Below are positions 306-20,857 of a stretch of DNA of 45,930 bases, in pieces (the stretch's first letter is position 1; the number at the start of each line of letters is the position of its first letter). This DNA is from Kiritimatiellia bacterium. Lineage in GTDB: Bacteria; Verrucomicrobiota; Kiritimatiellia; RFP12; UBA1067. The position numbers were made by a program, and so were the translations under genes. The stretch is from assembly GCA_900767325.1 (NCBI GenBank), contig CAAFYT010000069.1:1-45930 (forward strand). The letters run 5' to 3'. The notes beneath the pieces were generated by a model that was not told the DNA's origin, ran no database searches, and saw only the letters and a list, made by a program, of their open reading frames with translations.

Positions 306-511
306 GTTCCCATAATTGACGAAGGTGTGTCTTGCGCCTTCCGAGATTAATGTATGACGATACTGAAAACATTGGCTAAAAACGCATTTGGGGTTGCGCG
401 GGGCGAAGTCCCGCGTGTCCTTCGCGTTGCGGTCTGTGGTCGCGGTAGAGTTTTAATTGAAAGTTAAACTGATAAGTAATGAACCACAAAACAAACAAAG
501 GAGAAAAAGCA

Positions 512-3500: not shown

Positions 3501-6500
3501 TCAACCTTACCTTTGACAATCCTGACATGATGCTCGGTAAGATTACGGTCGTAAGCTCGCGTCCGATTCGCTTTACGGCGACCAAGGCGTTGCCGAACGT
3601 CGGTCAGTTCATTACTGATGGCTGCACGGGCGGAATTGTCTATGCCTGGCCGGTTTCGGCGCTTACGACTTCCGCAGAGGGCGTGACCTACGCTGGCGGT
3701 GCTGGTACGGTTGAAACTCCGGCGACGATGAACTTCGCGGTTGCAAATGGCTCGATGACCTTGAAGGATGCGACTTATTATCTCGGCACGAGCTATTCGG
3801 GCGTGCAGTCGACCGTCAATATGATTGATGCAACGATCTTCGCTAACGGCGATATGGGCTTTGGCGTCGGTCAGGCCAATTTCAACCTCTCGGGCACGAC
3901 CAAGCTCACTTCCGAGAAGGTTGTTCTCTCGCAAGGTGGCGGTGGTCGCACCGCGAATCTGACCCTGAGCGATTCGGCGGAAGTCATCGTCACGGGTTCG
4001 TCGATTGTCGACTCCAACCAGTCCTCGATTATGTTCGGTCACTACGCCGGACCTTCAACCTTCACGATTGAGGATTCAGCGAAGTTCACCGCCGAGGACG
4101 CGCAGGTGCTCGTCGGCAAGACAGGTGGCGATCAGACGATCAACATCAATGGCGGCGTCTTCACGGCGAAGGGCATCAAGGCCTCGGCTGGTGCGACTGG
4201 CACGAATGCGCTTAACCTGAATGACGGCGAGTTGAAGCTCGGCGAGTATGGTATTACTACCTACAATGCCGCGCGTACGATTTCGGTAACCGTCGATGGC
4301 AATGCGAAGATTACCTCGACGGCGGCGATGCCGATTACGCAGGCGCTTACGATCAACGCCGATAAGACGCTGACGCTTGACGCGACGGCGGGCGACATCG
4401 TTATTTCGGGCACGGTTGTCAACAACGGCACGATCAAGGTCGTTGGCGGCAACGTCATCTTCATGCCTGGCACGGCCAACGGTACGATCGTCGAAGAGGG
4501 CGGTAAGGCGCTTTACGGCTATATCGTCTCCATCAACGATTGCGGCAAGTTCACGATTCCGGAAGGCAAGACCGCGGAGAATATCCGCCTCTTTGATGGC
4601 GCTGGTAACGTGATTCCGTTCACCGACAACAAGGATGGCACCGTCTCCTATGAGTGGAAGATCACCGGTGGCGCTTGCTGGTGGGATTACGAGTTCAATG
4701 GCAATGGCGATAATGACGGCACCGATGGCAGGGCACTCAGCTGGGATAACGATCGTCCGTTTAAGGGTGATGAATATGTAGACGGCGAGAAGGTGCACGT
4801 TCCTACGCGTCCTTGGCGTGACGTTAGTAGCTGGCCGACTACCGCGACGTTTGTGATGTATGGTACGATGCCAAGCGATGACAATAGGTATTATGTTGTG
4901 TTCGGTTCGACGACGCATGGCTTGTGCAATGCGATATTCCTTGCGACTGACAAAGTTAGCGAAGACAAGGTCGTGCTTTGCAAGGCCTACGGACGGAGCG
5001 GGACTGAGGAAGATTTGACTAAACTTTGCACGATGACCGTGCCGAATGCGCAAACCGCCGACCACCTTTATGCGTTTGTGCTCAAGAACACCGACACGCA
5101 GACTATCATCGACATCTATCTCGACGGTGAACTCCTGCAGTCCTATCCGTTTGGCGAGATCATCAATCTCGGTACCGGATTCCAGATTGCGTCTCCACAC
5201 GGCGGTCCAGTAGTTGGCTATGAACGTCCGGACGATGCTGATGAGGCACTGCTTGATTGGCTCCGCGTGTACGATGTCGAGCTAACGAAGGAGGTTCTCG
5301 AGAGGTACGCGGTTCTCTATCCGTATGTCTCGCCGAATGGCTCGTATCAGCGCACGGTGACGGAAGATGCTGATTGGTCGGCGACTGACGCGTGGACCAA
5401 GGAAGGCACCGAGCCGGCCGAGACGGCGGATGAGCCGGCGGCGGGCGCGACGGTCAAGCTTGCGATCGATAACGATGACGCGACGACGACCATCGCTATC
5501 AACCTCGCGGACGATGTGATCTACGAGGCCATTCAGATCAATGGCGACGATGTCGAGTTCGTGCTCGCCGAGGGCGAGGAGTTCGGCGGTATCGCCAAGT
5601 CGACTGGCCGCGTTACGGCGAATGCGAACATCACCTTCGCGTATAATGCGTTCTCGATGGCGGGTGCGCCGCTCACGGTCAAGCAGGGTATGACCGTAAC
5701 CTTCGATCTCTCGATGGTCGATATGACCAAGTTCTTCTCGACCCAGACGTATGACCTCACGGGCTACCTCACGCTTGAGGATGGCGCGGAAGTTACCTTC
5801 ATCGTTCCGGAAGAGCTTCACGGCCGCACGGCTGAGGCGACGATTGATCCGGTTACCAAGCACTATGTGCTGACCGTCACGGCGCCGAACTATCCGTTCG
5901 TCTATGAAGATGGAGTGTGGACTTGGGGTACGCAGGTAATTGACGAGGAAACCATCAACGCGCATCCGGAAGTTCTCCGTTCGATCAAGAGCGATCTTGA
6001 AATGGCGCTTGGCACGAGCGATTACTCGGTCGAGAACGGCGCGACCTTGACGCAGACCGATGCGAGCGCGACGGGCACGATCACGATCAACGAGGGCGGC
6101 ACCTTTGATGTTAACGGTGTAATTGATACGGCGCTCAAGATCGTCCTGAACGGCGGTTCGCTCATTAACGATGGTAGCGACATCGACGCGGGCAAGAAGC
6201 AGTATGTTTCCATTACCCAGACGGCCGCCTCGACCATCGGCGGTTCGGGTGAATTCGGCTACGTCCTCAGCGGTTATGGCGAGAACACGCTCGATCTCGG
6301 CGGCGCGACGCTGACCAAGATGGATGACAACACCTTCTCGCTCTGCAACGCGACGGTTCAGAACGGCACGTTGAAGGTAGCGGATGGTGTGCTTGCGATT
6401 GCCAACAAAGCGGTGACGATTGCGGATACCGCCACTATCGAAGGCGTGGAAGGCGCGGTTCTGAGCGTTGGATCTTCCATCAGCGACTTCACGCTCACGG

Positions 6501-9500
6501 GCGCGATTACGCTCGCGGGTGCGGGCACGTTCGGCACGATTACGCTCGACGATGCGGCGCTTGATATTGACACGGTTCGCGGCTTGACGGTTGCGGGCGA
6601 GGGCTCGATCAAGGCGACGATCACGGCGGACGAAATGGCTGGTGGCTCGGTCGTCGTCTTCACGAAGGCGGAAGACGCTACGATCAGCTCGGTCACGCTC
6701 TATGATGAGGCCGGCGAGGTGCTTTCTGGCTACACCGCCGACTACGACGAAGACGGCAACTACATCGCCAACTTCTCGGTCACCTTCACGGTTGCGTCGA
6801 TTGATGGCGCGACGGCGGCGTTTGACGAGGGCTACGTGATTGGCGAGGATGATTCGGTCACCGTTCCGTATGGTGCAACCGCGACGCTCGTCTATACGGC
6901 CAATGAGGGCAAGCTCTTCAACGATGGCAAGACCACCGTGACTGTCCTGATCGAAAACATCACCGATGCGGCCACGGCCGAGCTCACGATCGCTGCGGCA
7001 ATCGCAGATAAGTCCACGGTTGATGCAGAGGCGAAGATTGGCTCGACGCTCTATCTCACGCTCGCGGATGCGTTCGCGGTGGATGGTCAGAAGTACATCG
7101 TGCTCTTGAAGGATGTCGAGCTTACCGACTGGATCGTCGTTGATTCGGTGGCGGCGCTTGAACTTAACGGATTCACCATCAGCCAAAGCGCGTCTTGGGC
7201 GCCGGCCGAGACGTCGCACGATCACCTCTTCTGTGTCACTTACGGTGGTACGTTCAGTGTGCTGAACGCATACGAAGAGGGCGGTACGATTGATGCGACT
7301 GGCAATGGCGATCTCTATGGCGCGATCAAGATGACCAAGAAGGGTGACGTCCGTCAGGGCGAAGAACTCGCGTCGCTAACGGTCTTCAGCGGTACGATTA
7401 TCGGTAACACTGCGGCGATTAGTGGCAATGGTACTCGCCACGGCACGTCGGTTACAATTGGCGATGATTACGGTTCTACGCTGATTAAGGCGGTTGTCGC
7501 GAACGACAGCGTCGGTATCTTCAATCCGCAGGACGGCACGGTTACCATTACTGGCGGTACGATTGAAGGCGCGATGGGCATCATCATCAAGAGCGGCTCG
7601 CTCCTGATGACCGGCGGTAAGGTCGTCGCGAATGGTGAATACGCTGAGTGGGTGAAGTCCAACAACGGCTTCAATAACACTGGTGACGCCATTGAGATTG
7701 ATAACATCGGTTATCCAGGCGAGGTTGCAGAGGTTCTCATTGGTGGCGATGTGATTGTTGAGTCTGCGAATGGCGCGGCGGTTGCCTCGCGTGCGGACGG
7801 TGCCTACACCCCGATTACCGGCTTCATCGCTGGTGGTAAGTTCAAGGGTGCGATCGATACCGATACTTCGCTCATCAAGACGACTGAAACTGGCATTGGT
7901 AAGTGGGTGACTGACGAGGACGGCTACAAGGTTCCGGCGGAAGATCCTGCGATGGCCAAGATCGGCACCAAGCTCTACTTGACGCTCGCCGAGGCAGTCA
8001 CTGCGGCGACGGATAACGATGAAGTTACGCTTCTCGCAAGCTGCGCGGGCGACGGCATCAAGATCGACAAGTCGATTACGATTGACTTCGGTGGCTTCAC
8101 CTATACGGTCGACGCCAGTCTCGTTGGTTCGCCGAGCACGCAGTCGCAGGCGTTCAACCTCGTGAGGGGCAACACCATCACCTTGAAGAACGGTACGATT
8201 ACCTCGACGGTTGCGCGTATGCTCGTTCAGAACTACGCGAGCTTGACGCTCGAAGATATGACCCTCGATGGCACGAACCTCGCGGCCAAGGACGGCAAGG
8301 GCAAAGACTACGTTGCCGATACGCTCTCGAACTGCGCTGGCGATACCGTGATTACGGGTGACTCCGTCATCAAGGCGCGCGTCCTCGACGGACAGAAGAG
8401 CTTCGCGTTCGACACCTACTATCAGGCGGGTAAGTACGAGGATGCGACAGTCACGGTCGATGGCGCGACAATCAACGGCAATGTTGAGCTCGCGGGTGGT
8501 AGCTTGACGCTTACGGCTGGCACGCTCAACGGCGAGCTCGTCGAAGGCGCTAACATCGAGAAGGGCGTTGTTACCAAGGACGACGCTTTCGAGGCCGCGG
8601 CTCCGGCTGGCTACGAGTGGAAGGATGGCGTGCTTACCGCGATCTATCCGGCGGCGAAGGTTGAGCCGACGACGGTCGATGGCTTTGACTACGCGTTCAT
8701 CTACACGGCGTTGAATGATGCGCCGAAATACGACGATGCGGTTGCGTCCTTCGTCATTACGCCCACGACGGCGGTTCCGGCTGACACCATCAAGGTCGGC
8801 GGCAAGTTCGCAACGATGGGTTGGAACATCTTCAACCTCCCGGCGATTGGCGCGGGCGAGAGCTACACGATTACCGAAGCGACTTGGGCGGAGGTTAAGG
8901 ATATCTCGCCGTTCACTTGCGGCGCGGCTTCCATCGCGCTTGAGAAGGATACGGAAGTTACCCTTACCCTCAAGCTTGGCGACGATGTGATCGACACGCA
9001 GACGGTTACGCTCAAGGCGGCGAAGGTTCTCCCGACTGCGATTGTTGCGGAAGCCGAGGTTACGGGTCTCGACAAGGCGGCGACCTTCACGCTCGACAAC
9101 AAGGGCATCAGCTACGATGACTGGAACGCTGACTTCATGATCACGCTCGACAAGGATGTCGAGGCGGGTCAAATCACGCTCGGCGGTGACTATGGCGAGT
9201 ATGGTCTTGTCACGTTCCCGGCTCCGGCCTTCACGGCTGGCGAGGCCCAGGGCGTTATGGCGATGATCGGCAAGACGATCACCGTTGCCGAGCTCGACGA
9301 GTTCGTTCAGGAGTTCACCTGCGGTATCAAGAACAACACCTTCCCGACCGAGTTCGGCGTTTCGGTGCAGCTCGTGATCACCGATGGTGAGACGACGATC
9401 GACATCGGCGAGCCGTTCGAGGCGACGATCCCGGCGGCGAAGGTTCTCCCGGAGGCGTCGGTCACGCCCGTCACGGTCGAGGGTCTCGACAAGGCGGCGA

Positions 9501-10750
9501 TGTTCGGCCTCGTGGATAAGGGCGTTGGCTACGATGATTGGAACGCCGACTTCACGATCACGCTCGATCAGGATGTTGCGGCGGGTCAGATCTCGCTCGG
9601 CGGCGCCTATGGCCAGTATGGCCTCATCACGTTCCCGGCTCCAGAATTCAAGGCGGGTGTGCCGCAGAACGTCATGGCGCTCTACGGCGATAAGGTCACC
9701 GTTGCTGAGCTCGATGCCATCAAGCTCTTCGTCTGCGGCATCAAGAACAACACCTTCCCGACCGAGTTCGGTGTTTCGGTGCAGCTCGTCATCTACGATG
9801 GTGAGACGACGATCGACATCGGCGATGCGTTCGAGGCGACGATCCCGGCGGCGAAGGTTCTCCCGACGGCTTCGGTTGCGGCGACCACGCTCGAAGGTCT
9901 CGACACGGCGGCTACCTTCACGCTCGAGAGCAAGGGCATCAACTACGACGACTGGAACGCCGACTTCACGCTCACGCTCGACAAGGATGTCGAGGCGGGT
10001 CAGATCTCGCTTGGCGGAATCTATGGCGAGTATGGCCTCGTCAAGTTCCCGACTCCGGCTCTCACGGCGGGTCAGGCCTATGGCGTTATGGAGCTCTTCG
10101 GTCAGACGATTACCGTTGCCGAGCTTGCCGAGTACGTCAAGGAGTTCACCTGCGGCGTCAAGAACAACACGTTCCTTGAGAACCTCGGCGTCACGGTGCA
10201 GCTCGTGATCACCGATGGTGAGACGACGATCAAAATCGGCGATGCGTTCGAGGCGACGGTTGAAGCGGTTGAGCCGTTCGATCCGGAAGTTCCTCAGACC
10301 TACAATACGCCGGAAGCGGCGCAGGAGGCGGCTGATACGATCAACGACAACAAGCTCACCATGATCAACATCCCGACCGTTGTGACCGACAAGCAGGCCT
10401 ATGTTGACCTCTTCGAGGCGGTCGCCGAGGGAACGACGGTTACGGTGCAGCTCACGGAAGATGCCAAGGGCGAAATCGCGGAAGAGCTCAAGAATGCCGA
10501 TGCGGCGGCGACGATTCTCACGCCGGACGAGGACGGCAAGGCGACCATCATCGCGAAGCCGGGTCTCTGGTACGGCATCAAGGCCGAGGGCTCGCTCTAC
10601 GATATGCCGACTGCCGAGGGTCAGAACTGGGAGCAGGCCACCGATGACACCGTCGCGGTCAAGGTTCCGGTTGTCACCGATTCTGAAGGCAACAAGGCCA
10701 AGGCCGCGTTCTTCCAGGCGACTTGCTCGGCGAAGGCGCCGACCAAGTAA
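512..10750 (+). CDS. Giant secreted/cell-surface protein (3412 aa), adhesin-like with ConA/LamG-like and beta-helix-like modules
   Basis: Uninterrupted ORF that opens at 479. AAGGAG lies 7 nt upstream of ATG 512. Signal peptide MSKLKSLIVATLAFAASFVTGSALA. Two LamG-like domain ends (GVAIFNERLTVDEIAAYEF; LDWLRVYDVELTKEVLERY). Duplicated YDVIVY modules and AKIGxxLYLTLAxA caps, plus three C-terminal tandem repeats. Confidence 0.9.
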   Translation: MSKLKSLIVATLAFAASFVTGSALAATPVAVWSGNFAGAETGVASGKYTLKANGNTVADDGSAITISSNVGVLVDWTDRSDFSTAGNITVIVKYSDYTVGANNGAAATLWAGSATANKDIVGPFTTASTGILNNIWNGAADGRGTKENKVLPASGVFSFDYSGNTAPKGSTTYIENNGTFEEACSGNGTLYTSTKDFYGLAVGGSRNAYNNLKALTGMKILGVAIFNERLTVDEIAAYEFPERKYCVYSQGTASGWGGNCNYNNNLNAIKLPETDAAPAGTKVEVTKLEIAQSPGGNTDDNRPTRIAITVDGKTTTSADFVSGGTIPASGGNNPVKLTYNFPEGCVLTVGTQATIKWLKADGSEITSIRYAASNDATGRFLLVNNGSANYSPIALLYGYALNIRTGKVINFNIQNTGSDGSVSGKGAQTTLIGSMPEASWNNNGSTKMGTISSGIKIYNTNDGTTEDTNMSVGVGNYLSGCGNYAYYGDGGTGTTGNLPNDYYYLHTFQTYRNYGNPDSGIEASNIKLTGIPFEKYDVIVYFNGSYKDGSNEKFHKVNITCNGVSRDYTVDANGAFIAGTADWGATRQVSSAYGVNAAVFTDVATADFELKLAEKYANIAAFQVVERVIPRVTSKATISEDTNWSEIQWDPAVEDFSTTKLELTVENNAKITLDEIVTCVGLAINGVSTFDVAEDLYEDGCWEKQFLSAKSFTSTGTISFGALKEGFYGAFTQTEKGISLRAQNKEVISINIAGGSGGGAGGDSPAANLVSGTGFYGIAPTVGDSWNNINRQWQSGGNQTITIDGPNAYDGKDVIKRETMSLSATGKNTWQAGSISNPFLRGYLDDGSGVTVEVHGVPYTEYDVIVYATSDSASIALAPITINGKQYTFKNGATTEGSDVWGQGLYATPEIGKNALRVNGCTGDTITINAVRTGGRATLCGVQVINKGEVVLKEDFSATITDSIKFSDITWDGGKTFKEGQLNEVVITVGDGTDEEVNLTFDNPDMMLGKITVVSSRPIRFTATKALPNVGQFITDGCTGGIVYAWPVSALTTSAEGVTYAGGAGTVETPATMNFAVANGSMTLKDATYYLGTSYSGVQSTVNMIDATIFANGDMGFGVGQANFNLSGTTKLTSEKVVLSQGGGGRTANLTLSDSAEVIVTGSSIVDSNQSSIMFGHYAGPSTFTIEDSAKFTAEDAQVLVGKTGGDQTININGGVFTAKGIKASAGATGTNALNLNDGELKLGEYGITTYNAARTISVTVDGNAKITSTAAMPITQALTINADKTLTLDATAGDIVISGTVVNNGTIKVVGGNVIFMPGTANGTIVEEGGKALYGYIVSINDCGKFTIPEGKTAENIRLFDGAGNVIPFTDNKDGTVSYEWKITGGACWWDYEFNGNGDNDGTDGRALSWDNDRPFKGDEYVDGEKVHVPTRPWRDVSSWPTTATFVMYGTMPSDDNRYYVVFGSTTHGLCNAIFLATDKVSEDKVVLCKAYGRSGTEEDLTKLCTMTVPNAQTADHLYAFVLKNTDTQTIIDIYLDGELLQSYPFGEIINLGTGFQIASPHGGPVVGYERPDDADEALLDWLRVYDVELTKEVLERYAVLYPYVSPNGSYQRTVTEDADWSATDAWTKEGTEPAETADEPAAGATVKLAIDNDDATTTIAINLADDVIYEAIQINGDDVEFVLAEGEEFGGIAKSTGRVTANANITFAYNAFSMAGAPLTVKQGMTVTFDLSMVDMTKFFSTQTYDLTGYLTLEDGAEVTFIVPEELHGRTAEATIDPVTKHYVLTVTAPNYPFVYEDGVWTWGTQVIDEETINAHPEVLRSIKSDLEMALGTSDYSVENGATLTQTDASATGTITINEGGTFDVNGVIDTALKIVLNGGSLINDGSDIDAGKKQYVSITQTAASTIGGSGEFGYVLSGYGENTLDLGGATLTKMDDNTFSLCNATVQNGTLKVADGVLAIANKAVTIADTATIEGVEGAVLSVGSSISDFTLTGAITLAGAGTFGTITLDDAALDIDTVRGLTVAGEGSIKATITADEMAGGSVVVFTKAEDATISSVTLYDEAGEVLSGYTADYDEDGNYIANFSVTFTVASIDGATAAFDEGYVIGEDDSVTVPYGATATLVYTANEGKLFNDGKTTVTVLIENITDAATAELTIAAAIADKSTVDAEAKIGSTLYLTLADAFAVDGQKYIVLLKDVELTDWIVVDSVAALELNGFTISQSASWAPAETSHDHLFCVTYGGTFSVLNAYEEGGTIDATGNGDLYGAIKMTKKGDVRQGEELASLTVFSGTIIGNTAAISGNGTRHGTSVTIGDDYGSTLIKAVVANDSVGIFNPQDGTVTITGGTIEGAMGIIIKSGSLLMTGGKVVANGEYAEWVKSNNGFNNTGDAIEIDNIGYPGEVAEVLIGGDVIVESANGAAVASRADGAYTPITGFIAGGKFKGAIDTDTSLIKTTETGIGKWVTDEDGYKVPAEDPAMAKIGTKLYLTLAEAVTAATDNDEVTLLASCAGDGIKIDKSITIDFGGFTYTVDASLVGSPSTQSQAFNLVRGNTITLKNGTITSTVARMLVQNYASLTLEDMTLDGTNLAAKDGKGKDYVADTLSNCAGDTVITGDSVIKARVLDGQKSFAFDTYYQAGKYEDATVTVDGATINGNVELAGGSLTLTAGTLNGELVEGANIEKGVVTKDDAFEAAAPAGYEWKDGVLTAIYPAAKVEPTTVDGFDYAFIYTALNDAPKYDDAVASFVITPTTAVPADTIKVGGKFATMGWNIFNLPAIGAGESYTITEATWAEVKDISPFTCGAASIALEKDTEVTLTLKLGDDVIDTQTVTLKAAKVLPTAIVAEAEVTGLDKAATFTLDNKGISYDDWNADFMITLDKDVEAGQITLGGDYGEYGLVTFPAPAFTAGEAQGVMAMIGKTITVAELDEFVQEFTCGIKNNTFPTEFGVSVQLVITDGETTIDIGEPFEATIPAAKVLPEASVTPVTVEGLDKAAMFGLVDKGVGYDDWNADFTITLDQDVAAGQISLGGAYGQYGLITFPAPEFKAGVPQNVMALYGDKVTVAELDAIKLFVCGIKNNTFPTEFGVSVQLVIYDGETTIDIGDAFEATIPAAKVLPTASVAATTLEGLDTAATFTLESKGINYDDWNADFTLTLDKDVEAGQISLGGIYGEYGLVKFPTPALTAGQAYGVMELFGQTITVAELAEYVKEFTCGVKNNTFLENLGVTVQLVITDGETTIKIGDAFEATVEAVEPFDPEVPQTYNTPEAAQEAADTINDNKLTMINIPTVVTDKQAYVDLFEAVAEGTTVTVQLTEDAKGEIAEELKNADAAATILTPDEDGKATIIAKPGLWYGIKAEGSLYDMPTAEGQNWEQATDDTVAVKVPVVTDSEGNKAKAAFFQATCSAKAPTK
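9017..10261 (+). repeat. Three in-frame tandem repeats of 138-139 aa (417/414/414 nt) inside the giant gene
   Basis: Each unit starts GCGGCGAAGGTTCTCCC (AAKVLP...) at 9017, 9434 and 9848. Each contains DDWNADF...GQI(T/S)LGG.YG.YGL..FP...FTCG(I/V)KNNTF...VQLVI.DGETTI.IG. A degenerate fourth copy precedes them at about 8650-9016. Confidence 0.9.
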
Positions 10751-11954: not shown

Positions 11955-11997
11955 GGTATTGTAAAAACGGGAATTGTGTGCTACAATACGCAACAAC

Positions 11998-13143
11998 ATG
12001 GAGTATATAGCACGAAAAATTGAGTCGCAAATTGTCAGACGCCTTTCGTCTGGCAAAATAAATGTCGTATATGGTCCGCGGCAAAGCGGGAAAACGACAA
12101 TGGTCAAACATCTGGTTGAGGAGCAGAAGCTAAATGCACTTTGGCTTGACGCCGATTTGCTGGATGTGCGCGAGTTGCTGGTAAACATGTCTCCTGAGAA
12201 ATGGAGCTCAATCATTGGCGGTCACGATACCTTGGTTATCGATGAGGCGCAACGAGTCGAGGGGATTGGACTTGCGTTGAAGATTCTCGTTGATCACATC
12301 AAGGGTGTCAAGGTTGTGGTCACTGGTTCCAGCGCGCTCGATCTTCGCAATCGTTTGGACGAACCGCTGACGGGTCGTGCGTTTTCGTATGTTTTGCTGC
12401 CGCCGTCGTTTTGCGAGTTGGCGGATGCGGGTGATTCTCTTTCGGAGGCGCGCGCGTTGGAGCAGCGACTGGTTTACGGATCCTATCCCGGGGTTTTGGC
12501 GGATCGGGAAGATCGTGATTTCACGCTGATGTCGCTTGCTTCCAGTTATCTCTACAAAGACGTTCTCATCGTCGATGGTATCGCCAAATCTGCGGTGTTG
12601 GACAAGTTGGTTCGTGCACTTGCCTTTCAAATCGGGCAGGAAGTATCGTATCAGGAGCTTGGCGAGCTTGTCGGAGTGGATCGAAAGACGGCGGAGAAAT
12701 ACGTTGATTTGTTGAAGAAGTGTTTTGTCGTGTTCGAGCTTCCCGCCTATGCGAGAAACTTGCGCAATGAAATAAAAAAGTCGCGCAAAATCTATTTCCA
12801 CGACCTTGGCATCCGCAACGCCGCCATCGGCAATCTTTTGCCGCTTTCGTCGCGTGCGCAAGAGGAAGTTGGGCATCTTTGGGAGAATTACCTCATTGCC
12901 GAGCGATACAAGTTGAATGTAAACGCAACGATTCCGCCGAGAATGTTCTTTTGGCGTACGAAGGCGCAACAGGAGGTAGATTATCTGGAGGAATGTGCAG
13001 AGGGGCTTTTCGCGTGGGAAATGAAGTGGAATGCGAAAAAGGCGATTGGGGAATTGCCGTTGGCGTTTAGGAAGTCTTATCCGGAGGCGCGCACGGGATT
13101 CGTCTCGCCAGCAAACGCGAGAGATTTTCTGACCTTGCCGTAA
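11998..13143 (+). CDS. AAA+ ATPase with a DUF4143-like C-terminal region
   Basis: Walker A GPRQSGKTT and Walker B-like LVIDEAQ. The overall layout is typical of the AAA_14/DUF4143 family. ATG 11998 is preferred over the TTG at 11974 because TGcTACAAT lies at 11979-11987. Confidence 0.8.
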   Translation: MEYIARKIESQIVRRLSSGKINVVYGPRQSGKTTMVKHLVEEQKLNALWLDADLLDVRELLVNMSPEKWSSIIGGHDTLVIDEAQRVEGIGLALKILVDHIKGVKVVVTGSSALDLRNRLDEPLTGRAFSYVLLPPSFCELADAGDSLSEARALEQRLVYGSYPGVLADREDRDFTLMSLASSYLYKDVLIVDGIAKSAVLDKLVRALAFQIGQEVSYQELGELVGVDRKTAEKYVDLLKKCFVVFELPAYARNLRNEIKKSRKIYFHDLGIRNAAIGNLLPLSSRAQEEVGHLWENYLIAERYKLNVNATIPPRMFFWRTKAQQEVDYLEECAEGLFAWEMKWNAKKAIGELPLAFRKSYPEARTGFVSPANARDFLTLP

Positions 13144-13227: not shown

Positions 13228-16044
13228 ATGAGAAAAATCGCGATGGTGGTATTGTGCGGGCTCATGGCCTTTGGTGCGTTCGCCGGAGAGGTTACCGTCG
13301 TCAAGACGTTGGACGAGTTTGCGGCCGCGCTGACGAATAAGAGCGTTACGGAAGTGCAAATCCCCTTTGGCGTGGATATCGCCATTCCGAGCGGCAAGAA
13401 GCTGACCGTCCCCGTCGCAAAGTCCGTGACGGTCGATGGACGGCTTTTGGTTATTGGTTCGCTTGTGAACAATGGCGCTGTCGCTGGCTCGGGTTCCTAC
13501 GCGACCGCCTTTACCAAGATCGTGCAAGGCGCGGTCGTTACGCCGACGAATGCCTTTGCGAGCTACCCTGCCTTCAGGTATCGCACAACGAAAACGACCT
13601 CGGTTATCGGGTCGCTTACCGGAAACAAGCCCACGTGCGCGAAGGCGCCGAAGGTCTGTTTCATCGAGGGCTTGGAGAAGTATGTCGAATCGAAGGTCTC
13701 CTCGCCGGCTGCTGCCGTTTGCACGGTCGATTCGTCGACCGCGCTCAACTCCTATGTCTCTATCGACAGCGTGCACGAGAAGCTCGCCGAGGCATTCCAC
13801 GCGGCCTATCCGAATCCGACAGCGACTCCGCCGGCGAACAAGTTCGTCGTTCTGCTGAAGGGCAGCCAATCGATCGACCAGGCCGCCCTGAGCGCGCTCA
13901 ATCCCGCTTGGACGACCGAAAAGGGTCACATCGGAAAGGGCTTTCGCGTCGATTGCCTGGCCTATGCGTTCACGATCAAGAGCCCAGTTGCGAATTCCAC
14001 GGTCTATCTCGTCAACGGCACGACGATTTCGCACGGCACGAACACCGCCTATACGAATTGGAGCACGGAATACATTATCGGCTGCACGACGAAGGCGAGT
14101 GTCGCCATTAACTGCAATTCGGCAAGCGCAACGAGCCGCGTTGAGCTTTACGACTGCAAGGACTTCGCAACGGCCAACCAGGGCTCGGCCGACTTGACTT
14201 TGAACAACAAGGGCTATTATGTCTTCACCGGCGGACCTTACACCATTCCGGAGAAAACGCTCAACCTCAGGGTCGTCGGCGGTTCCTACACGACCGATCC
14301 GACGGCACTTTGTCCGGCGGGCTACGTCGGGGAGTTCGATGGCGCGAATTACGAGGTCGTCAAGAAGAGCGTGGACTACAGCTTCTTCATCGGCGACGAG
14401 GGAGTCGAGGCGAATCGGTTCGCCACGCTTGCGGACGCGGTTCAGGCGGCGAATGGGGCAACGATCAAGCTCGCGAAGGACGCGGCGGTATCGTCCGATC
14501 TGATCGTTGGCGCGAAGGCGGTTGTCGATCTCAACGGCTTCCGGCTTTCGGGCCCCGGCGAGATCGTCGTTGCCGCCGCGGGCGATCTTACGCTTGTCGA
14601 TTCGTCCATCTACAAGGGCGCGACCGGCACGTGCGCGAACGCAATCGACGTTGCCGGCTCGCTGACGATTGCCTACGGCGCGTATTCCGGCGCGATTCGG
14701 CTGAGGGCCGGTTCGGCGGCAACGACTTACGCCGGCTCCTTCGCGCTCGCGTTCGCCATCGATCCGGGCGCGACGGCTGCTTTCAGGGGCGGCAGATTCC
14801 CGCTGTCAGTCGGGCCCTATCTCGGCGAGGGCTATCAGGAGATGAAGATCGGCTCGCAGTATTGCGTCGGGCGCAGACTTTTCGGCACGCTCACGAAGAA
14901 AGGCGGCTCCAACACGAAGGACGAGGACTTCGATGTCCGCTACGTCGGCGATTCGGCGCTTTACGAGAGCTACTTGGCGCAGCCCGCGTTCGATTCGGAT
15001 TCGGCGGCGTTCTTCGCTCACGCCGAGGCGGACTCGGCGATTTCGCCGCTCGGGAGTTTCACGATCGACGTCATCGTCAACTTCGATCGAGACATGGGCT
15101 CCAATACGCTGAAGTTCTACTACACGATCTTCGGCACGCTCTTGCCGGTGGAAATTCCGGCGAAAACGGAATATCGCCTCTTCTACCATATCATGAAGGA
15201 TTATCTCGCCGAGCTCGGCGGCTCGCAGATCCAGCTGTCGCGCTTTTTGGGGAGCGAGTTCAATAATGCTCTGCCGATTGGGATTGGCAACGAAACGAGC
15301 GCACCCGAAAACATCGGCGCGATTTGCGACATCGAGATCTGCCTCTACAACGGCAACTCCAAGGTCGTTTCGCTCGGCAAGACCAAGGTTACGCTGGGCG
15401 CGCGGGCGAATGTCGCGTACATCACGAGAAACGGCTCGCCGAAGTTCCATTCCGCGCTTTCGCTCGCGGTTCAGGCGGCGGCGGAAGGCGAGACGATCGT
15501 CTTGGCCCGCGAGAGCGCGGAGGGCGTGACGGTCGCCAAGGCGATCACGATCGACACCAAGGGCTTCGCGGTCGATGGCGTTGTCGCGGGCAAGGGATAT
15601 TCGGCTCGGGTCGAGGGCGAGAGGATCGTCTTCGCGAAGAGCGATTGGCCGGAGGAATGGGCGGATATTCCGGCGGATGACGCGGTCAAGGCGAGGTTCG
15701 CCGGGTGGCGCGCGGAGAAGGGCGCAGGAGCCGACCTCACGACGGACTCCGCCAAGCAGGCGTTCCTTCTGGACGTTGCCGCCGATGCGCCGATACCGGC
15801 GCTGAGGGTCGAGAAGATCGCGGCTGCGGAAGGCGTTGCGGAGATCGCGGTCAGCGCCGCCGGAGCCGATCTCGGGCGAATCAATGGCGTTTTCTTCGCC
15901 GAGGCGGGCGAAACGCCGGGCGAACTCAAGCCGCTGGCGCTTTCGGAAAAAGAGGTGGACTATGTCGCGGGCAAGGCGATCGTGACGTTCGTCTCCGGGC
16001 GGTTCTTCAGGGCCGCAATCGGCTTTACCGGGGCGCATCCCTGA
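13228..16044 (+). CDS. Secreted surface protein (938 aa) of unknown function
   Basis: Signal peptide MRKIAMVVLCGLMAFGAFAGE. It shares cap-like modules with the giant protein (RFATLADAVQAANGATIKLAKD...DLNGFRLSG; FHSALSLAVQAAAEGETIVLAR...DTKGFAVDG). High GC3 throughout. Confidence 0.85.
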   Translation: MRKIAMVVLCGLMAFGAFAGEVTVVKTLDEFAAALTNKSVTEVQIPFGVDIAIPSGKKLTVPVAKSVTVDGRLLVIGSLVNNGAVAGSGSYATAFTKIVQGAVVTPTNAFASYPAFRYRTTKTTSVIGSLTGNKPTCAKAPKVCFIEGLEKYVESKVSSPAAAVCTVDSSTALNSYVSIDSVHEKLAEAFHAAYPNPTATPPANKFVVLLKGSQSIDQAALSALNPAWTTEKGHIGKGFRVDCLAYAFTIKSPVANSTVYLVNGTTISHGTNTAYTNWSTEYIIGCTTKASVAINCNSASATSRVELYDCKDFATANQGSADLTLNNKGYYVFTGGPYTIPEKTLNLRVVGGSYTTDPTALCPAGYVGEFDGANYEVVKKSVDYSFFIGDEGVEANRFATLADAVQAANGATIKLAKDAAVSSDLIVGAKAVVDLNGFRLSGPGEIVVAAAGDLTLVDSSIYKGATGTCANAIDVAGSLTIAYGAYSGAIRLRAGSAATTYAGSFALAFAIDPGATAAFRGGRFPLSVGPYLGEGYQEMKIGSQYCVGRRLFGTLTKKGGSNTKDEDFDVRYVGDSALYESYLAQPAFDSDSAAFFAHAEADSAISPLGSFTIDVIVNFDRDMGSNTLKFYYTIFGTLLPVEIPAKTEYRLFYHIMKDYLAELGGSQIQLSRFLGSEFNNALPIGIGNETSAPENIGAICDIEICLYNGNSKVVSLGKTKVTLGARANVAYITRNGSPKFHSALSLAVQAAAEGETIVLARESAEGVTVAKAITIDTKGFAVDGVVAGKGYSARVEGERIVFAKSDWPEEWADIPADDAVKARFAGWRAEKGAGADLTTDSAKQAFLLDVAADAPIPALRVEKIAAAEGVAEIAVSAAGADLGRINGVFFAEAGETPGELKPLALSEKEVDYVAGKAIVTFVSGRFFRAAIGFTGAHP

Positions 16045-17191
16045 TCTTCGGCGAAGTGGGCGTCTGGGATGCGGCTTTGTCCAGCTGGAGGCGAAGGGCG
16101 TGGTCGCGGTAGAGCTGCAGGAGCCCCTGGATCGCGAGGCCGTTCTGCGCGTAGAGACGCGATGGATTGTGGTCGTGGCCGAACATGCGGCTCGCCATGA
16201 CGCGAACCGGGCGGGAGATGTCTTCGGGGGGCAGCCAATCCGGAATCGATGCGATGCGTTCCTCGGCGAGGGCGAAGGGCACGATGACGTTGCAGAGAAT
16301 GGCCGCCGCGCGGCCGCGCCCCATGTAATGCCGACCGCAAATGGCGGCGATCAGTCGGCGACACGCGCCCTTGGAGAAATCGGCGAGATCGATGGCCTCG
16401 ATCATGGGCGTTGACGTGAAGATGTGGGCGGCGTCGACTAGCCGTTTCTTCGGCAGATTGCTGGGGCGGCAGCTTTCGTAGTCCCAATCCTCGAATCCAC
16501 CGGCCGCGAGCAGGGCCTCTTCGGCGATCTTTGCGTTTCGCAGCAGGCAGGCGAGCGGCACGCGTTCGGAGACATGGCGAAACTGGGCGGAGTTCTTCTT
16601 GTAGCCGAGAGCGGTCATGACCTCTTCGTAGAAGACCTGTCGGCGCATGTTCCGTCGCGCACCCAGCCGCCCCAGGATGCGCCGCGCCTTCATCCGCAAC
16701 CGATGCTTGCCGGCCAATTGGAGCAGGCGGCGCGCGGCCTCGGGGTCGCCTGCGGTCAGCTCCGTTCGCGTACGCTCCGCGTCCGAGATGTGCGCGTAGG
16801 GATAGGCGGTCAGGTCGATCTGCTCCGGCGCGAATGCGCTCTTCGATTGCATGAAACGGCCCAGCCAGAGCGAAATCGCCTCGGGCGGGAGCGTCTTGGG
16901 AGCCGGGCCATCGTGCCAGGTCACATGGGCGATCACGTTCCGATAGCGCGGATCGGAGCCGTGCCGATGGAAGTCCCAATCGGCGGGGCAGAGGTGTATT
17001 TCGACATCGCCGACGCGTCGCCTGCCGCCGATCTCCAGAACGGCGTCCCTGAAATCAGGGCCTGCCTCAAGATTCCATTCGCCGGGGGTTATGACCTTTA
17101 CCTCGACCTCCTGCGGCGTGTAGAGCTTCGCCGGACGAAGGGCGTTGTCAAACCAGATTGCCTGGATGTGTCGTTCAGTCAGAGTTTTCAT
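16025..17191 (-). CDS. DUF2851 family protein
   Basis: MKTLTERHIQAIWFDNA...GEWNLEAGPDFRDAVLEIGG...GDVEIHLCPADWDFHRHGSDPRY matches the DUF2851 N-terminal signature as I recall it. The ATG at 17191 overlaps the recA-like stop region by 17 nt. Confidence 0.7.
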   Translation of the reverse strand: MKTLTERHIQAIWFDNALRPAKLYTPQEVEVKVITPGEWNLEAGPDFRDAVLEIGGRRRVGDVEIHLCPADWDFHRHGSDPRYRNVIAHVTWHDGPAPKTLPPEAISLWLGRFMQSKSAFAPEQIDLTAYPYAHISDAERTRTELTAGDPEAARRLLQLAGKHRLRMKARRILGRLGARRNMRRQVFYEEVMTALGYKKNSAQFRHVSERVPLACLLRNAKIAEEALLAAGGFEDWDYESCRPSNLPKKRLVDAAHIFTSTPMIEAIDLADFSKGACRRLIAAICGRHYMGRGRAAAILCNVIVPFALAEERIASIPDWLPPEDISRPVRVMASRMFGHDHNPSRLYAQNGLAIQGLLQLYRDHALRLQLDKAASQTPTSPKIRDAPR

Positions 17192-18095
17192 GGTGGGTGG
17201 TTTCGCGCGGAATGCCGCAGGAATAGAGGAGATCGAACTCGGCGTCCGCAAGGGCGGGTTGGGGCTCGGCCCTGCCGGAGGTTCCGGCCCTGCCGGCGGC
17301 TCCGGCCCTGCCGGCGGAAGTGTTCTTCACCACGCGGACGCGGGTGCGATTGCCGATGATGACGCCGGATGGAGCGCTGATCATTCCGATGCGCTGGACC
17401 TGCAGCCGACAGGCGGCGCGGAGCTTCAGGGCCTTGCCGCCGGGCGTCATTTCGGGGTTGCCGGCCAGCGCGCCGATCCGATCCCTCACCTGGTTGAGGA
17501 AAATGCAGAGCGTGTTGGATTTCGCCAGGGCCGAGGCGATCCTCCGCAACGCCTGCGACAGGATGCGCGCCTGCAAGCCGCTGGCAGGGTCGAAACCATC
17601 GATTTCGGCCTGCGGCGTGAGCGCGGCAACGGAATCGACCACGATGACGTCGACCGCACCGGATTTCGCCATCCGCTCGCAGATCGTAAGGGCTTCCTCG
17701 GCGCTGGTTGGCTGCGCGACGATGAGGTCGTCGAGATCCACGCCGATGCGTTTCGCATAGGCGGGGTCGAGAGCGTGCTCCACATCGATGTAGACGCTGG
17801 CTCCGGCCCTGCCGGTGGTTCCGGCCCTGCCGGCGGCTCCGAGCTGCTGTGCGGAGGCGATCACGCCGAGGGCGAGAGTGGTCTTGCCCGAGGATTCGTG
17901 GCCGAAGAACTCGACGATCCGCCCCCTCGGCAGTCCGCCGCTACCGAGGGCCTTGTCCAGCGGCCGGCATCCCGTGGGAATGACCTTTGGCGATTTCCTG
18001 AACGAGTCGCCCAGGTGGCCAATGGACGAGTTGCCGAATTCGCGCCGGATGAAGCCGAGCACTTCGTCGAGCGTCATGGCGAGCCGGGGGATCAT
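17175..18095 (-). CDS. recA: RecA-family recombinase core (306 aa) lacking the C-terminal domain, with two in-frame repeat insertions
   Basis: Collinear with E. coli RecA: GRIVEFFGHESSGKTTLAL, YIDVEHALDP, SGAVDVIVVDSVAALTPQAEI, NQVRDRIGALAGNPEMTPGGKALKL, TRVRVVKN. It ends about 15 aa after AEFDLLY. ATG 18095 forms an ATGA overlap with the yraN stop; an alternative ATG lies at 18077. Confidence 0.8.
   Translation of the reverse strand: MIPRLAMTLDEVLGFIRREFGNSSIGHLGDSFRKSPKVIPTGCRPLDKALGSGGLPRGRIVEFFGHESSGKTTLALGVIASAQQLGAAGRAGTTGRAGASVYIDVEHALDPAYAKRIGVDLDDLIVAQPTSAEEALTICERMAKSGAVDVIVVDSVAALTPQAEIDGFDPASGLQARILSQALRRIASALAKSNTLCIFLNQVRDRIGALAGNPEMTPGGKALKLRAACRLQVQRIGMISAPSGVIIGNRTRVRVVKNTSAGRAGAAGRAGTSGRAEPQPALADAEFDLLYSCGIPRETTHHENSD
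17263..17321. repeat. 18-nt tandem repeat GGCCCTGCCGGNGGNTCC x3 inside the recA-like gene
   Basis: Units at 17268-17285, 17286-17303 and 17304-17321. They encode SAGRAG-AAGRAG-TSGRAE, inserted where RecA has KNKIAAPFKQAEF. Confidence 0.9.
17799..17840. repeat. The same 18-nt unit x2 at a second site in the recA-like gene
   Basis: Units at 17805-17822 and 17823-17840. They encode AAGRAG-TTGRAG, inserted between AQQLG and SVYIDVEHALDP, where E. coli has REGKTCAFID. Confidence 0.9.
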
Positions 18096-18535
18096 GACTG
18101 CTCCCAGTGGACGAAACGATCGGGCATCGCGAACAGGCGCACATTGCGGATGTGGTCGATGACGGGGCTCCCGTTCTCCGGAACGCCATGGATCTCCACG
18201 ACGTCGAACCTGATCGCTCCGAGCCACCTGTTGATGCGCCGCCAGGCGTTGCAGGCCCGCAGGAGGTTCTTGCGTTTCTGGCGCGTGATGCTTCGCAGGC
18301 GGTGCGCGTATTGCGAGAAGGAGGCGTGCTGCTTGACCTCGATGAAGACCATCGTATCGCGCGGACGATCCCAGGCGATGATGTCGATCTCCAGGCGGTT
18401 GTCCCTTTCGCACGGGCGGGAGTTGCGCTCGATTATCTCGTAGCCGTGGCAACGGAGGTAGTCCGTTGCCACGCGTTCGCCCCATTTGCCGTGGGCGACG
18501 CCGATGTTTTCGGCCTTGTGCGGGCGAAGCGTCAT
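18092..18535 (-). CDS. yraN: YraN family (UPF0102) PD-(D/E)xK endonuclease-like protein
   Basis: GERVATDYLRCHGYEIIERN...EIDIIAWD...MVFIEVK is the characteristic YraN core. ATGA overlaps occur at both ends (18532-18535 and 18092-18095). Confidence 0.8.
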   Translation of the reverse strand: MTLRPHKAENIGVAHGKWGERVATDYLRCHGYEIIERNSRPCERDNRLEIDIIAWDRPRDTMVFIEVKQHASFSQYAHRLRSITRQKRKNLLRACNAWRRINRWLGAIRFDVVEIHGVPENGSPVIDHIRNVRLFAMPDRFVHWEQS

Positions 18536-19154: not shown

Positions 19155-20705
19155 TCAAACCCAGAAGGAGTTTTCCTCGCCATCGAGTTTGCGATAGGCC
19201 AGAGCGCCGAAGATGTGCTCGTCGCGCACGGATTCGGATTCGGCGAGGTCGGCGAGCGTTCGCGCGACGCGGAGCACCTTGTCGTAGGCGCGGGCGGAGA
19301 GGTTGAGGCGTTCGATCATCCGGACGAGCCGCGAGCAGTCGGCTGCGGTGAAGCGGCAGGCGTCGGGCAGGTCGCGGCTTCTGACCTCGGCGTTGGTGTG
19401 AACGCCGGAAAGGCCTTTGTAGCGCGCGCTCTGGCGGGCGCGGGCGGCGAGCACGCGTTCGCGTATGGTGCGGCTGTCTTCGCCCCTTGCCATGACCGGC
19501 AACCGCTCGACCTCGACCGGAGGAACCTCGATCTGGATGTCGATTCGGTCGAGCAGCGGGCCCGAGACGCGGCTTTGGTACTTGATGATGGCGCTCATCG
19601 GGCAGCGGCAGGAGTGGCGGCGGTCGTTGTAGTAGCCGCAGGGACAGGGGTTCATGGCCGCGACCAGCATGAACTTGGAGGGGAAGTCGTAGGCGGCGGC
19701 GGCGCGCGACACGGCAACATGGCCGTCTTCGAGCGGCTGGCGCAGAACCTCGAGCGCGGCGCGCGGAAACTCCGCGAATTCGTCGAGGAAGAGAACTCCG
19801 CGATGCGCGAGCGAGACTTCTCCCGGCACGGGACGCGAGCCACCGCCCAGGAGGGCGATGGAGCTTACCGTGTGGTGCGGGGCGCGGAATGGACGCTTCC
19901 TGACGAAGCCCTCCACGCCTTTCGAGAGCCCGGCGACCGAATGGATGCGGGAGACCTCGATCGCCTCGTCGACGCTCAGCGGGGGGAGAATGGAGGGAAT
20001 GCGGCGCGCGAGCATCGTCTTGCCGGAGCCGGGCGAACCGATCATCAGGATGTTGTGGCCTCCCGCGACGGCGACCTCGATCGCCTTGCGCGCGTCGGTC
20101 TGGCCCTTGATGTCCGCGAAATCGTCCGCGAAATCGTCCGCGCCATCGATCAGGGCGCCGAGATCGGTGAAGCGCGGTTCGATCGTGCATTCGCCATTGA
20201 GGAACATCACCGCCTCCTGCAAGGTGCCGACGGGAATCACGTCGATGCCGGAAACGACGCTTGCCTCGCGTGCGTTTTCACACGGCACGAGGATGGCCCG
20301 CTTGCCGATGCGGCGCATTTCGAGGACCATCGGCAGAACGCCGTGGACCTTTCGGACCTCGCCGGAGAGCGCGAGCTCGCCGACCAGGGCGAATTCGTCC
20401 AGATGCTCGTTGCGGATGCGCCCGGTTGCCTTCAGGAGACTGACGGCGATCGGCAGGTCGAAACTCGGACCTTCCTTCTTCAGGTCCGCCGGGGCGAGGT
20501 TGACGGTGATGTCATATTCCATCTTCCTGGCGGCGAGGCCCTGATTCCGGAGTGCGGTCGGGATGCGATCCTTCGCCTCCTTCACCGCCGCATCGGGGAG
20601 ACCGACGATAGCGAACTGACTGACGCCGATGGAGGAATTGACCTCGATCTCGACTGCACGCGCCTCCACGCCGTAGATCGCGGCGGAATAGCATTTTGCC
20701 AACAT
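19155..20705 (-). CDS. comM: YifB/ComM family Mg-chelatase-like AAA+ ATPase
   Basis: N-terminus MLAKCYSAAIYGVEARAVEIEV. Walker A GSPGSGKTM and Walker B VLFLDEF. C-terminal region RAYDKVLRVARTLADL. AAGGAG RBS before ATG 20705. Confidence 0.9.
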   Translation of the reverse strand: MLAKCYSAAIYGVEARAVEIEVNSSIGVSQFAIVGLPDAAVKEAKDRIPTALRNQGLAARKMEYDITVNLAPADLKKEGPSFDLPIAVSLLKATGRIRNEHLDEFALVGELALSGEVRKVHGVLPMVLEMRRIGKRAILVPCENAREASVVSGIDVIPVGTLQEAVMFLNGECTIEPRFTDLGALIDGADDFADDFADIKGQTDARKAIEVAVAGGHNILMIGSPGSGKTMLARRIPSILPPLSVDEAIEVSRIHSVAGLSKGVEGFVRKRPFRAPHHTVSSIALLGGGSRPVPGEVSLAHRGVLFLDEFAEFPRAALEVLRQPLEDGHVAVSRAAAAYDFPSKFMLVAAMNPCPCGYYNDRRHSCRCPMSAIIKYQSRVSGPLLDRIDIQIEVPPVEVERLPVMARGEDSRTIRERVLAARARQSARYKGLSGVHTNAEVRSRDLPDACRFTAADCSRLVRMIERLNLSARAYDKVLRVARTLADLAESESVRDEHIFGALAYRKLDGEENSFWV

Positions 20706-20765: not shown

Positions 20766-20857
20766 GCGTGGCGTGAAGACGGCGTGAGTTTTGCGTGTGT
20801 TTTTCTTCACGCCGTCTTCACGCGCGCTTCACGCCGTCTTCACGCGCGCTTCACGCC
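20766..20857. promoter_or_regulatory. 11-bp-phased array: GCGTG x3 (20771, 20782, 20793) then CACGC x5 (20808, 20819, 20830, 20841, 20852)
   Basis: 22-nt unit CTTCACGCCGTCTTCACGCGCG x2.4 at 20805-20857, with an inverted copy at 20771-20788. It sits between the response-regulator stop (20858) and a TGcCATACT -10 (20745-20753, minus strand) upstream of comM. Confidence 0.75.

Follow-up and report, generated by a model that had tools for sequence, protein, structure and literature searches.

We analysed a stretch of 45,930 nucleotides (nt) from a Kiritimatiellia bacterium (contig CAAFYT010000069.1 of GenBank assembly GCA_900767325.1), hereafter called the window, which carries on its minus strand a recA gene whose product lacks the C-terminal domain (CTD). 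The gene encodes 306 amino acids (aa). It overlaps both of its neighbours: the start codon at 18095 shares the sequence ATGA with the stop codon of YraN upstream, and the last 17 nt run into the DUF2851 gene downstream, which has its ATG at 17191. The features of the gene were as follows:

17175..18095, minus strand: recA coding sequence without the CTD, 306 aa plus stop codon, assigned from profile and structure-chain matches
17880..17903, minus strand: Walker A motif (P-loop) GHESSGKT, residues 65-72, with the His typical of the clade
17798..17841, minus strand: minisatellite insertion 1, 2.4 copies of an 18-nt unit, peptide AAGRAGTTGRA, 11 aa more than in relatives
17574..17609, minus strand: loop L1 region, AEIDGFDPASGL
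17436..17495, minus strand: loop L2 region, NQVRDRIGALAGNPEMTPGG
17412..17432, minus strand: subunit-interface helix ALKLRAA
17263..17317, minus strand: minisatellite insertion 2, 3.1 copies of an 18-nt unit, peptide SAGRAGAAGRAGTSGRAEPQ, 18 aa more than in relatives
17202..17243, minus strand: last RecA-homologous segment, AEFDLLYSCGIPRE, placed by alignment to clade relatives, junction translation and tblastn
17178..17201, minus strand: non-homologous tail TTHHENSD (last 8 residues), from three-frame translation; the stop codon lies at 17175-17177

The protein was compared with RecA profiles and with E. coli RecA structures. Pfam PF00154 matched at an E-value of 2.8e-85 and 286.4 bits (cut-off 27), aligning residues 9-261 with positions 3-245 of the 262-position profile, and TIGR02012 was covered at positions 6-248 of 321. 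The E. coli structures aligned at E about 1e-73, residues 9-261 falling on chain positions 10/11 to 252/253. Identity of the 306-aa protein was about 52% to E. coli RecA and 62-67% to clade orthologs. All motifs of the ATPase core were found, namely GHESSGKT (Walker A), VIVVDSV (Walker B), IDVEHALD (catalytic Glu) and LNQV (Gln194), and both K248 and the context of the catalytic Glu96 (EHALD) were retained. The N-terminal oligomerisation helix was present as well: residue 9 corresponds to E. coli residue 10-11, and the N-terminus exceeds that of clade relatives by 1 aa. A first-pass annotation of this DNA had described the helix as 12-18 aa shorter than in E. coli, which the alignment contradicts, and had singled out the His of GHESSGKT as a departure from the conserved motif; that His proved to be invariant in 24 of 24 aligned clade relatives, and GHESSGKT is the norm in the clade.

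At the C-terminal end, RecA_C (PF21096) gave no match in the 306-aa protein, and every canonical relative has this domain. RecA homology ran past the second repeat insertion to ...AEFDLLYSCGIPRE, where relatives read AEFDILYSCGISRE, and ended at residue 298, which is about Y271 of E. coli. This end segment is equivalent to E. coli G267-Y271, at the boundary of core and CTD; in E. coli RecA the core spans residues 34-269 and the CTD residues 270-335 (PMC13076628). Positions 17202 and 17201 flank the deletion junction. From there the reading frame continues into TTHHENSD (tail peptide ...GIPRETTHHENSD), which is read-through of a 10-nt spacer and of the 5' end of DUF2851 in another frame. Compared with the related locus L009, about 186 nt were lost; depending on the relative, the loss amounts to 56-69 codons and is exactly the CTD. 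The DUF2851 ATG directly adjoins or overlaps the stop codon of recA in L009 and L011. No CTD remnant was found, either in the window by tblastn with the CTDs of four relatives or in any frame at the junction, and a frameshift hiding the domain was ruled out by the same tblastn comparison together with the three-frame translation of the junction. These results bear out what the first-pass annotation had read from the letters, that is, a RecA core without its CTD, which stops near E. coli residue 270 and is already overlapped by DUF2851, and the profile alignments confirmed the domain boundaries.

The junction and tail were common to six assemblies (the window, L001, L002, L006, L014 and L015), which represent three haplotypes and at least five samples. 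The ENA assemblies L001 and L002 encode the identical 306-aa protein, and L001 was 99.94% identical to the window at the nucleotide level over 20.9 kb. L006 (Logan run SRR25429144) has the same junction and tail at 97.6% nucleotide identity, and L014 and L015 (ERZ27247193, ERR6929714) carry a further haplotype in which junction and tail are as in the window. No frameshift or stop occurred in recA in any of the six assemblies. Neither a full-length allele nor any allele between 67% and 94% identity was found among 5.8 billion protein clusters, and a protein-pattern search of JGI metagenomes returned no further copy of the truncated RecA.

One explanation of such a gene is that an error in sequencing or assembly conceals a full-length recA. 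Nothing was found in its favour, and we consider it extremely improbable: the assemblies were made with different assemblers, haplotypes that differ by 1-2.4% at the nucleotide level share the junction, and no CTD-coding remnant exists in any frame. Assembly error was rejected because the six assemblies are concordant. The first-pass annotation had named two situations that would undo its description, an assembly error and a CTD that is present after all, and neither was encountered. The truncation is real and is fixed in its lineage, which is one species-level group known from metagenomes only.

The core of the protein also carries two in-frame insertions. Both are built from a common 18-nt unit, GCC GCC GGC AGG GCC GGA, which encodes AAGRAG (the AGRAG peptides) and whose core, CCGGCAGGGCCGG, is a small palindrome. 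Insertion 1 is located between the post-P-loop helix and strand beta-2. Insertion 2 lies in a beta-hairpin turn right behind K248-N249, where it replaces K250-V-A-A. A 13-mer of the repeat occurs 5 times in the 46-kb window, all within recA, against 0.1 occurrences expected by chance; it was absent from nine related loci, and a pattern of two DNA repeat units had no match in JGI contigs. Copy number varies between haplotypes, L006 having one unit fewer at each site, and all internal indels of recA are in frame. The two arrays sit 530 nt apart in one gene, and L001, L002, L006, L014 and L015 carry them too.

Further changes affect the DNA-binding loops and the subunit interface (E. coli numbering). 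Both loops are present. In the L1 region, a 2-aa deletion and G160F were seen relative to the relatives (EIDGEIGDAHVGL). In the L2 region, Q194, R196 and GNPE..GG are kept, and K198R, V201A, M202L, F203A and T208M are changed. The interface helix carries F217L and Y218R, and additional lineage-specific changes near the interface are K232S, K245R and K250T. With K250 replaced by Thr and followed by the 18-aa insertion, and with Leu at F217 and Arg at Y218, the canonical K250/F217 interface is not kept. F217 and K248/K250 belong to the interface through which protomers coordinate ATP hydrolysis; the contact of K248 with the gamma-phosphate and work on Phe217 are cited in PMC2632893. Both 18-nt tandem-repeat insertions, the 2-aa L1 deletion and the F217/Y218/K250 substitutions had escaped the first-pass annotation.

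The neighbouring genes were as follows:

16025..17191, minus strand: DUF2851 gene, 388 aa, conserved downstream neighbour of recA in relatives
18092..18535, minus strand: YraN/UPF0102 gene, conserved upstream neighbour, assigned by a profile match
19155..20705, minus strand: ComM/YifB Mg-chelatase-like AAA ATPase, part of the conserved order and used as a rate control

The gene order ComM, ~190-aa hypothetical protein, YraN, RecA, DUF2851 was kept in L003-L005, L008/L009 and L011/L012, and L010 has the same upstream order without DUF2851. In the syntenic Kiritimatiellae relatives, RecA is full length (326-339 aa) and has RecA_C, and the relatives examined have one recA at the ComM-YraN-DUF2851 locus. 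Since this conserved slot holds a full-length recA in relatives, the truncated gene is the positional ortholog. The best relatives of ComM were 78% identical, and one at 75% is labelled "Kiritimatiellae bacterium" in NCBI, so that the window falls within the Kiritimatiellae. In neighbour-joining trees the window was sister to L009 for both ComM and RecA, and this agreement fits vertical descent of recA. A specialised paralog, one of the three readings offered in the first-pass annotation, is disfavoured both by the conserved recA slot and by the position next to L009 in the two trees.

Several further observations concern this locus and its relatives. In these Kiritimatiellae, the gene directly downstream of recA is DUF2851, and the stop codon of the one often overlaps the start codon of the other; in many bacteria recX holds this position. 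The placement hints that DUF2851 may be functionally connected with RecA. Between 18092 and 20705, a conserved block on the same strand as recA comprises ComM/YifB, the uncharacterised ~190-aa protein and YraN/UPF0102, a predicted nuclease, and leads into recA. In L003-L005 a ComEC-type 'Competence' gene stands two genes upstream, and an unrelated 401-aa open reading frame (ORF) occupies this place in the window lineage. The protein P0003, from a separate 2.6-kb ENA contig, is a 427-aa RecA of the Kiritimatiellae type in which ~100 core residues are duplicated, with two occurrences of GV.LA.L..SQP...TNQVREKIG; it reflects either a genuine duplication in tandem or a chimeric assembly.

The rate of evolution of recA was compared with that of ComM. 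ComM identity was 72-78% between the window and relatives and 71-78% among the relatives themselves, while the corresponding values for RecA were 62-67% and 74-83%. The terminal neighbour-joining branch of the window was 0.329 for RecA, against 0.048-0.104 in the orthologs, and 0.115 for ComM, against 0.101-0.162. The acceleration is about 4-fold and is specific to recA; ComM evolves normally.

An acceleration confined to recA would fit relaxed constraint after redundancy. In that case, a canonical recA would be present elsewhere in the genome, and the syntenic copy would degenerate or would have changed its role, perhaps to that of a modulator that co-polymerises with the full-length protein. 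Two kinds of background count for such a redundant copy: a few bacteria, such as Myxococcus, have two recA genes, and truncated fragments of E. coli RecA interfere with the wild-type protein. However, tblastn gave no match to a second recA, either across the 45.9-kb window or in the examined parts of related contigs, the relatives show their one recA at this locus, and the protein database held no match at 70-90% identity, as a recent duplicate would give. A scan of GTDB-representative genomes returned only an unrelated RecA from Halieaceae. We judge a redundant copy to be distinctly unlikely.

Conservation was scored against 45 diverse full-length RecA representatives, drawn from a search of 1.84 billion cluster representatives; short matches in that search were indistinguishable from contig-end fragments and are uninformative on other CTD-less RecAs. 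Among columns conserved at >=95%, the window RecA kept 51 of 53, and the two changes (M171L and K198R) were conservative. It changed 5 of 37 columns at 85-95% conservation and 12 of 49 (~24%) at 70-85%. In four relatives, the numbers of changed columns in these three classes were 0, 0-4 and 1-3, respectively. Judged from this distribution of substitutions, constraint is relaxed, but evolution is not neutral.

Polymorphism within the lineage was examined next to this divergence. As all three haplotypes are truncated, the differences between them arose after the truncation. In the RecA-homologous part, the three haplotypes showed 2 non-synonymous (V203M and V245A) and 6 synonymous differences, against a neutral expectation of 74% non-synonymous (P = 0.005) or a transition-only expectation of 66% (P = 0.022). 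The repeat inserts showed 5 non-synonymous differences and no synonymous ones. This count became informative once the L014/L015 haplotype was added and the repeats were separated from the core; the pairwise dN/dS (ratio of non-synonymous to synonymous rates, omega) comparison of the window with L006 comprised 5 non-synonymous and 4 synonymous changes, too few to decide alone. Between the window and L014, omega was 0.28 for recA, similar to the values of 0.16-0.58 in those neighbouring genes that had non-synonymous differences (DUF2851, a 938-aa protein and Fic), and YraN and a partial fragment of the ~190-aa hypothetical protein (hyp191) had no non-synonymous differences. Though small, these counts indicate that the core is still selected at the protein level and that the inserts are not.

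These results bear on the explanation that the gene is an early-stage pseudogene. Function would then have been lost with the 3' deletion, the frame would have stayed open owing to recency or to translational coupling with DUF2851, and the lineage would lack homologous recombination. Such decay would be in keeping with the lost CTD, with a terminal branch about 4-fold longer than in orthologs, with the changes at important positions (K250T, F217L, Y218R, L1 and L2), with hypervariable repeat insertions inside the core and with a TIGR02012 score under the cut-off. However, the substitutions are far from uniform, with 2 of 53 near-invariant columns changed versus ~24% of the moderately conserved ones, and the core polymorphism that arose after the truncation (2 non-synonymous to 6 synonymous, P = 0.005-0.022) would not result from selection for translational coupling alone. 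The absence of frameshifts and stops in the six assemblies and the in-frame state of all internal indels also argue against it. We regard decay as rather unlikely, though it deserves serious weight.

The reading that we favour, with a probability of roughly 0.55, is a maintained but altered RecA without a CTD, vertically inherited as the positional ortholog in an uncultured Kiritimatiellae species. Between the remaining readings in the first-pass annotation, a minimal RecA and a decaying gene, the evidence leans towards a maintained protein. A deletion of ~185 nt fused the RecA core, right past the Y271 equivalent, to the start region of DUF2851, and the same lineage also gained the two 18-nt minisatellite insertions, the 2-aa L1 deletion and the L2, F217, Y218 and K250 substitutions. 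The data directly show the deletion, the synteny, the fast branch and the constraint. According to the favoured reading, the gene would still be translated within a ComM-YraN-recA-DUF2851 operon and would be under purifying selection.

We infer the biochemical behaviour of the protein from the parts that it keeps and lacks. The N-terminal helix and the ATPase motifs (P-loop, Walker B and catalytic Glu) are in place, as are most residues of the DNA loops, so that ATP binding would be expected, as would polymerisation on single-stranded DNA by way of the contact between N-terminal helix and core. The product lacks the domain that in E. coli gates and captures duplex DNA and contacts regulators; the gateway model, in which the CTD gates the access of duplex DNA, was reportedly proposed by Kurumizaka in 1996. 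Positions that link ATP hydrolysis in one subunit to that in the next are altered, and a large loop would sit at the ATP interface. Given the loss of the CTD and the altered coupling residues, an attenuated or differently regulated recombinase is expected rather than one of wild-type behaviour. ATP hydrolysis and DNA pairing are likely to differ from those of canonical RecA and are probably less efficient.

Several points weigh against a maintained RecA. The protein scored 294.9 bits against TIGR02012, under the curated cut-off of 325.3, because the last quarter of the profile (positions 249-321) is unmatched. K250T, F217L, Y218R, F203A, G160F and the 2-aa L1 deletion affect positions of importance to the E. 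coli protein; in E. coli, large C-terminal truncations or changes at F217 or K250 cripple recombination. The selection test comprises only 8 core polymorphisms. An AlphaFold model built from a 25-sequence clade alignment had a mean predicted local distance difference test (pLDDT) score of 55 and was unusable. Finally, a second canonical recA outside the searched window, improbable in our estimate, would make the truncated copy dispensable.

A further-reaching interpretation is that this protein, as the sole RecA of the species, is a working natural minimal recombinase. The AGRAG loops would then partly replace the lost functions, and the fast changes in L1, L2, F217 and Y218 would be compensatory adaptation, not decay. 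In that scheme, the Arg-bearing loop at K250 might stand in for the positive charge that acts in trans, and one or both loops might give a secondary DNA contact. We hold this interpretation, including the roles that it gives to the loops, to be doubtful.

Compared with canonical bacterial RecA, the window RecA shares the N-terminal helix, the P-loop, Walker B, EHALD, Gln194, most of L1 and L2, K248 and the genomic slot. It differs in having no CTD or tail, in its two insertions, in the L1 deletion, in K250T, F217L, Y218R and F203A, and in evolving ~4-fold faster. It is a RecA by descent, yet it is without two defining features of the family, the CTD and the K250/F217 interface.

Engineered E. 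coli RecA truncations include deltaC17, RecA5327/deltaC25 and larger fragments, and the active ones lose only 17-25 residues. Like these, the window RecA has lost residues at the C-terminus that have a modulating effect on the access of duplex DNA and on regulation. Unlike them, it is without the whole folded domain from ~271, is natural and fixed, and bears many core changes.

Archaeal RadB, phage Sak4 and ImuA are likewise core-only ATPases of the RecA fold, of comparable size and without a C-terminal DNA-binding domain, but the window RecA still has the N-terminal helix specific to RecA and derives recently from a genuine recA gene. Membership of the ImuA, RadB or KaiC-like families was rejected, as all scores were far under the cut-offs (37.7 against 150 for ImuA, 39.7 against 172 for RadB and <=17 bits for KaiC). 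Rad51 and RadA are also recombinases without a RecA-type CTD, but they have an N-terminal duplex-DNA-binding domain that is not in the window RecA, and their similarity to it was weak (E = 1e-8 to 1e-10). The searchable literature yielded nothing relevant on a natural CTD-less RecA ortholog or on Kiritimatiellae recA, which is weak negative evidence.

Other parts of the window showed additional features. An AAA_14/DUF4143 gene (11974-13143), between the 938-aa protein and Fic, is present in the window and L001 and absent in L014 (5747-5854), and is a presence/absence polymorphism within the species. A giant ORF at 479-10750 encodes 3423 aa and contains a 414-nt tandem repeat at 9065-10258 (2.9 copies, 79% matches); the segment of this ORF in L014 has only ~93% nucleotide identity, against 98.5-99.8% for neighbouring genes. 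An intergenic region upstream of ComM (20805-20857) holds a perfect 22-nt tandem repeat in 2.4 copies, CTTCACGCCGTCTTCACGCGCG.

Few bacterial proteins are as conserved as RecA. Its CTD is seen as admitting and capturing duplex DNA and as a docking site for regulators, and the effects of losing it are known from engineered E. coli mutants. The window gene is a genuine and reproducible structural variant, and its constraint and twin minisatellites make it more interesting than a plain pseudogene. If the gene is decaying, it would record the loss of recA in a lineage of Kiritimatiellae, a more ordinary outcome that would still matter where recA serves as a universal marker and where the completeness of metagenome-assembled genomes is estimated. 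If it is a fixed and selected CTD-less ortholog, it would be a natural experiment, in a non-endosymbiotic bacterium, on which functions of RecA can be lost or re-wired and on the changes that compensate for their loss.

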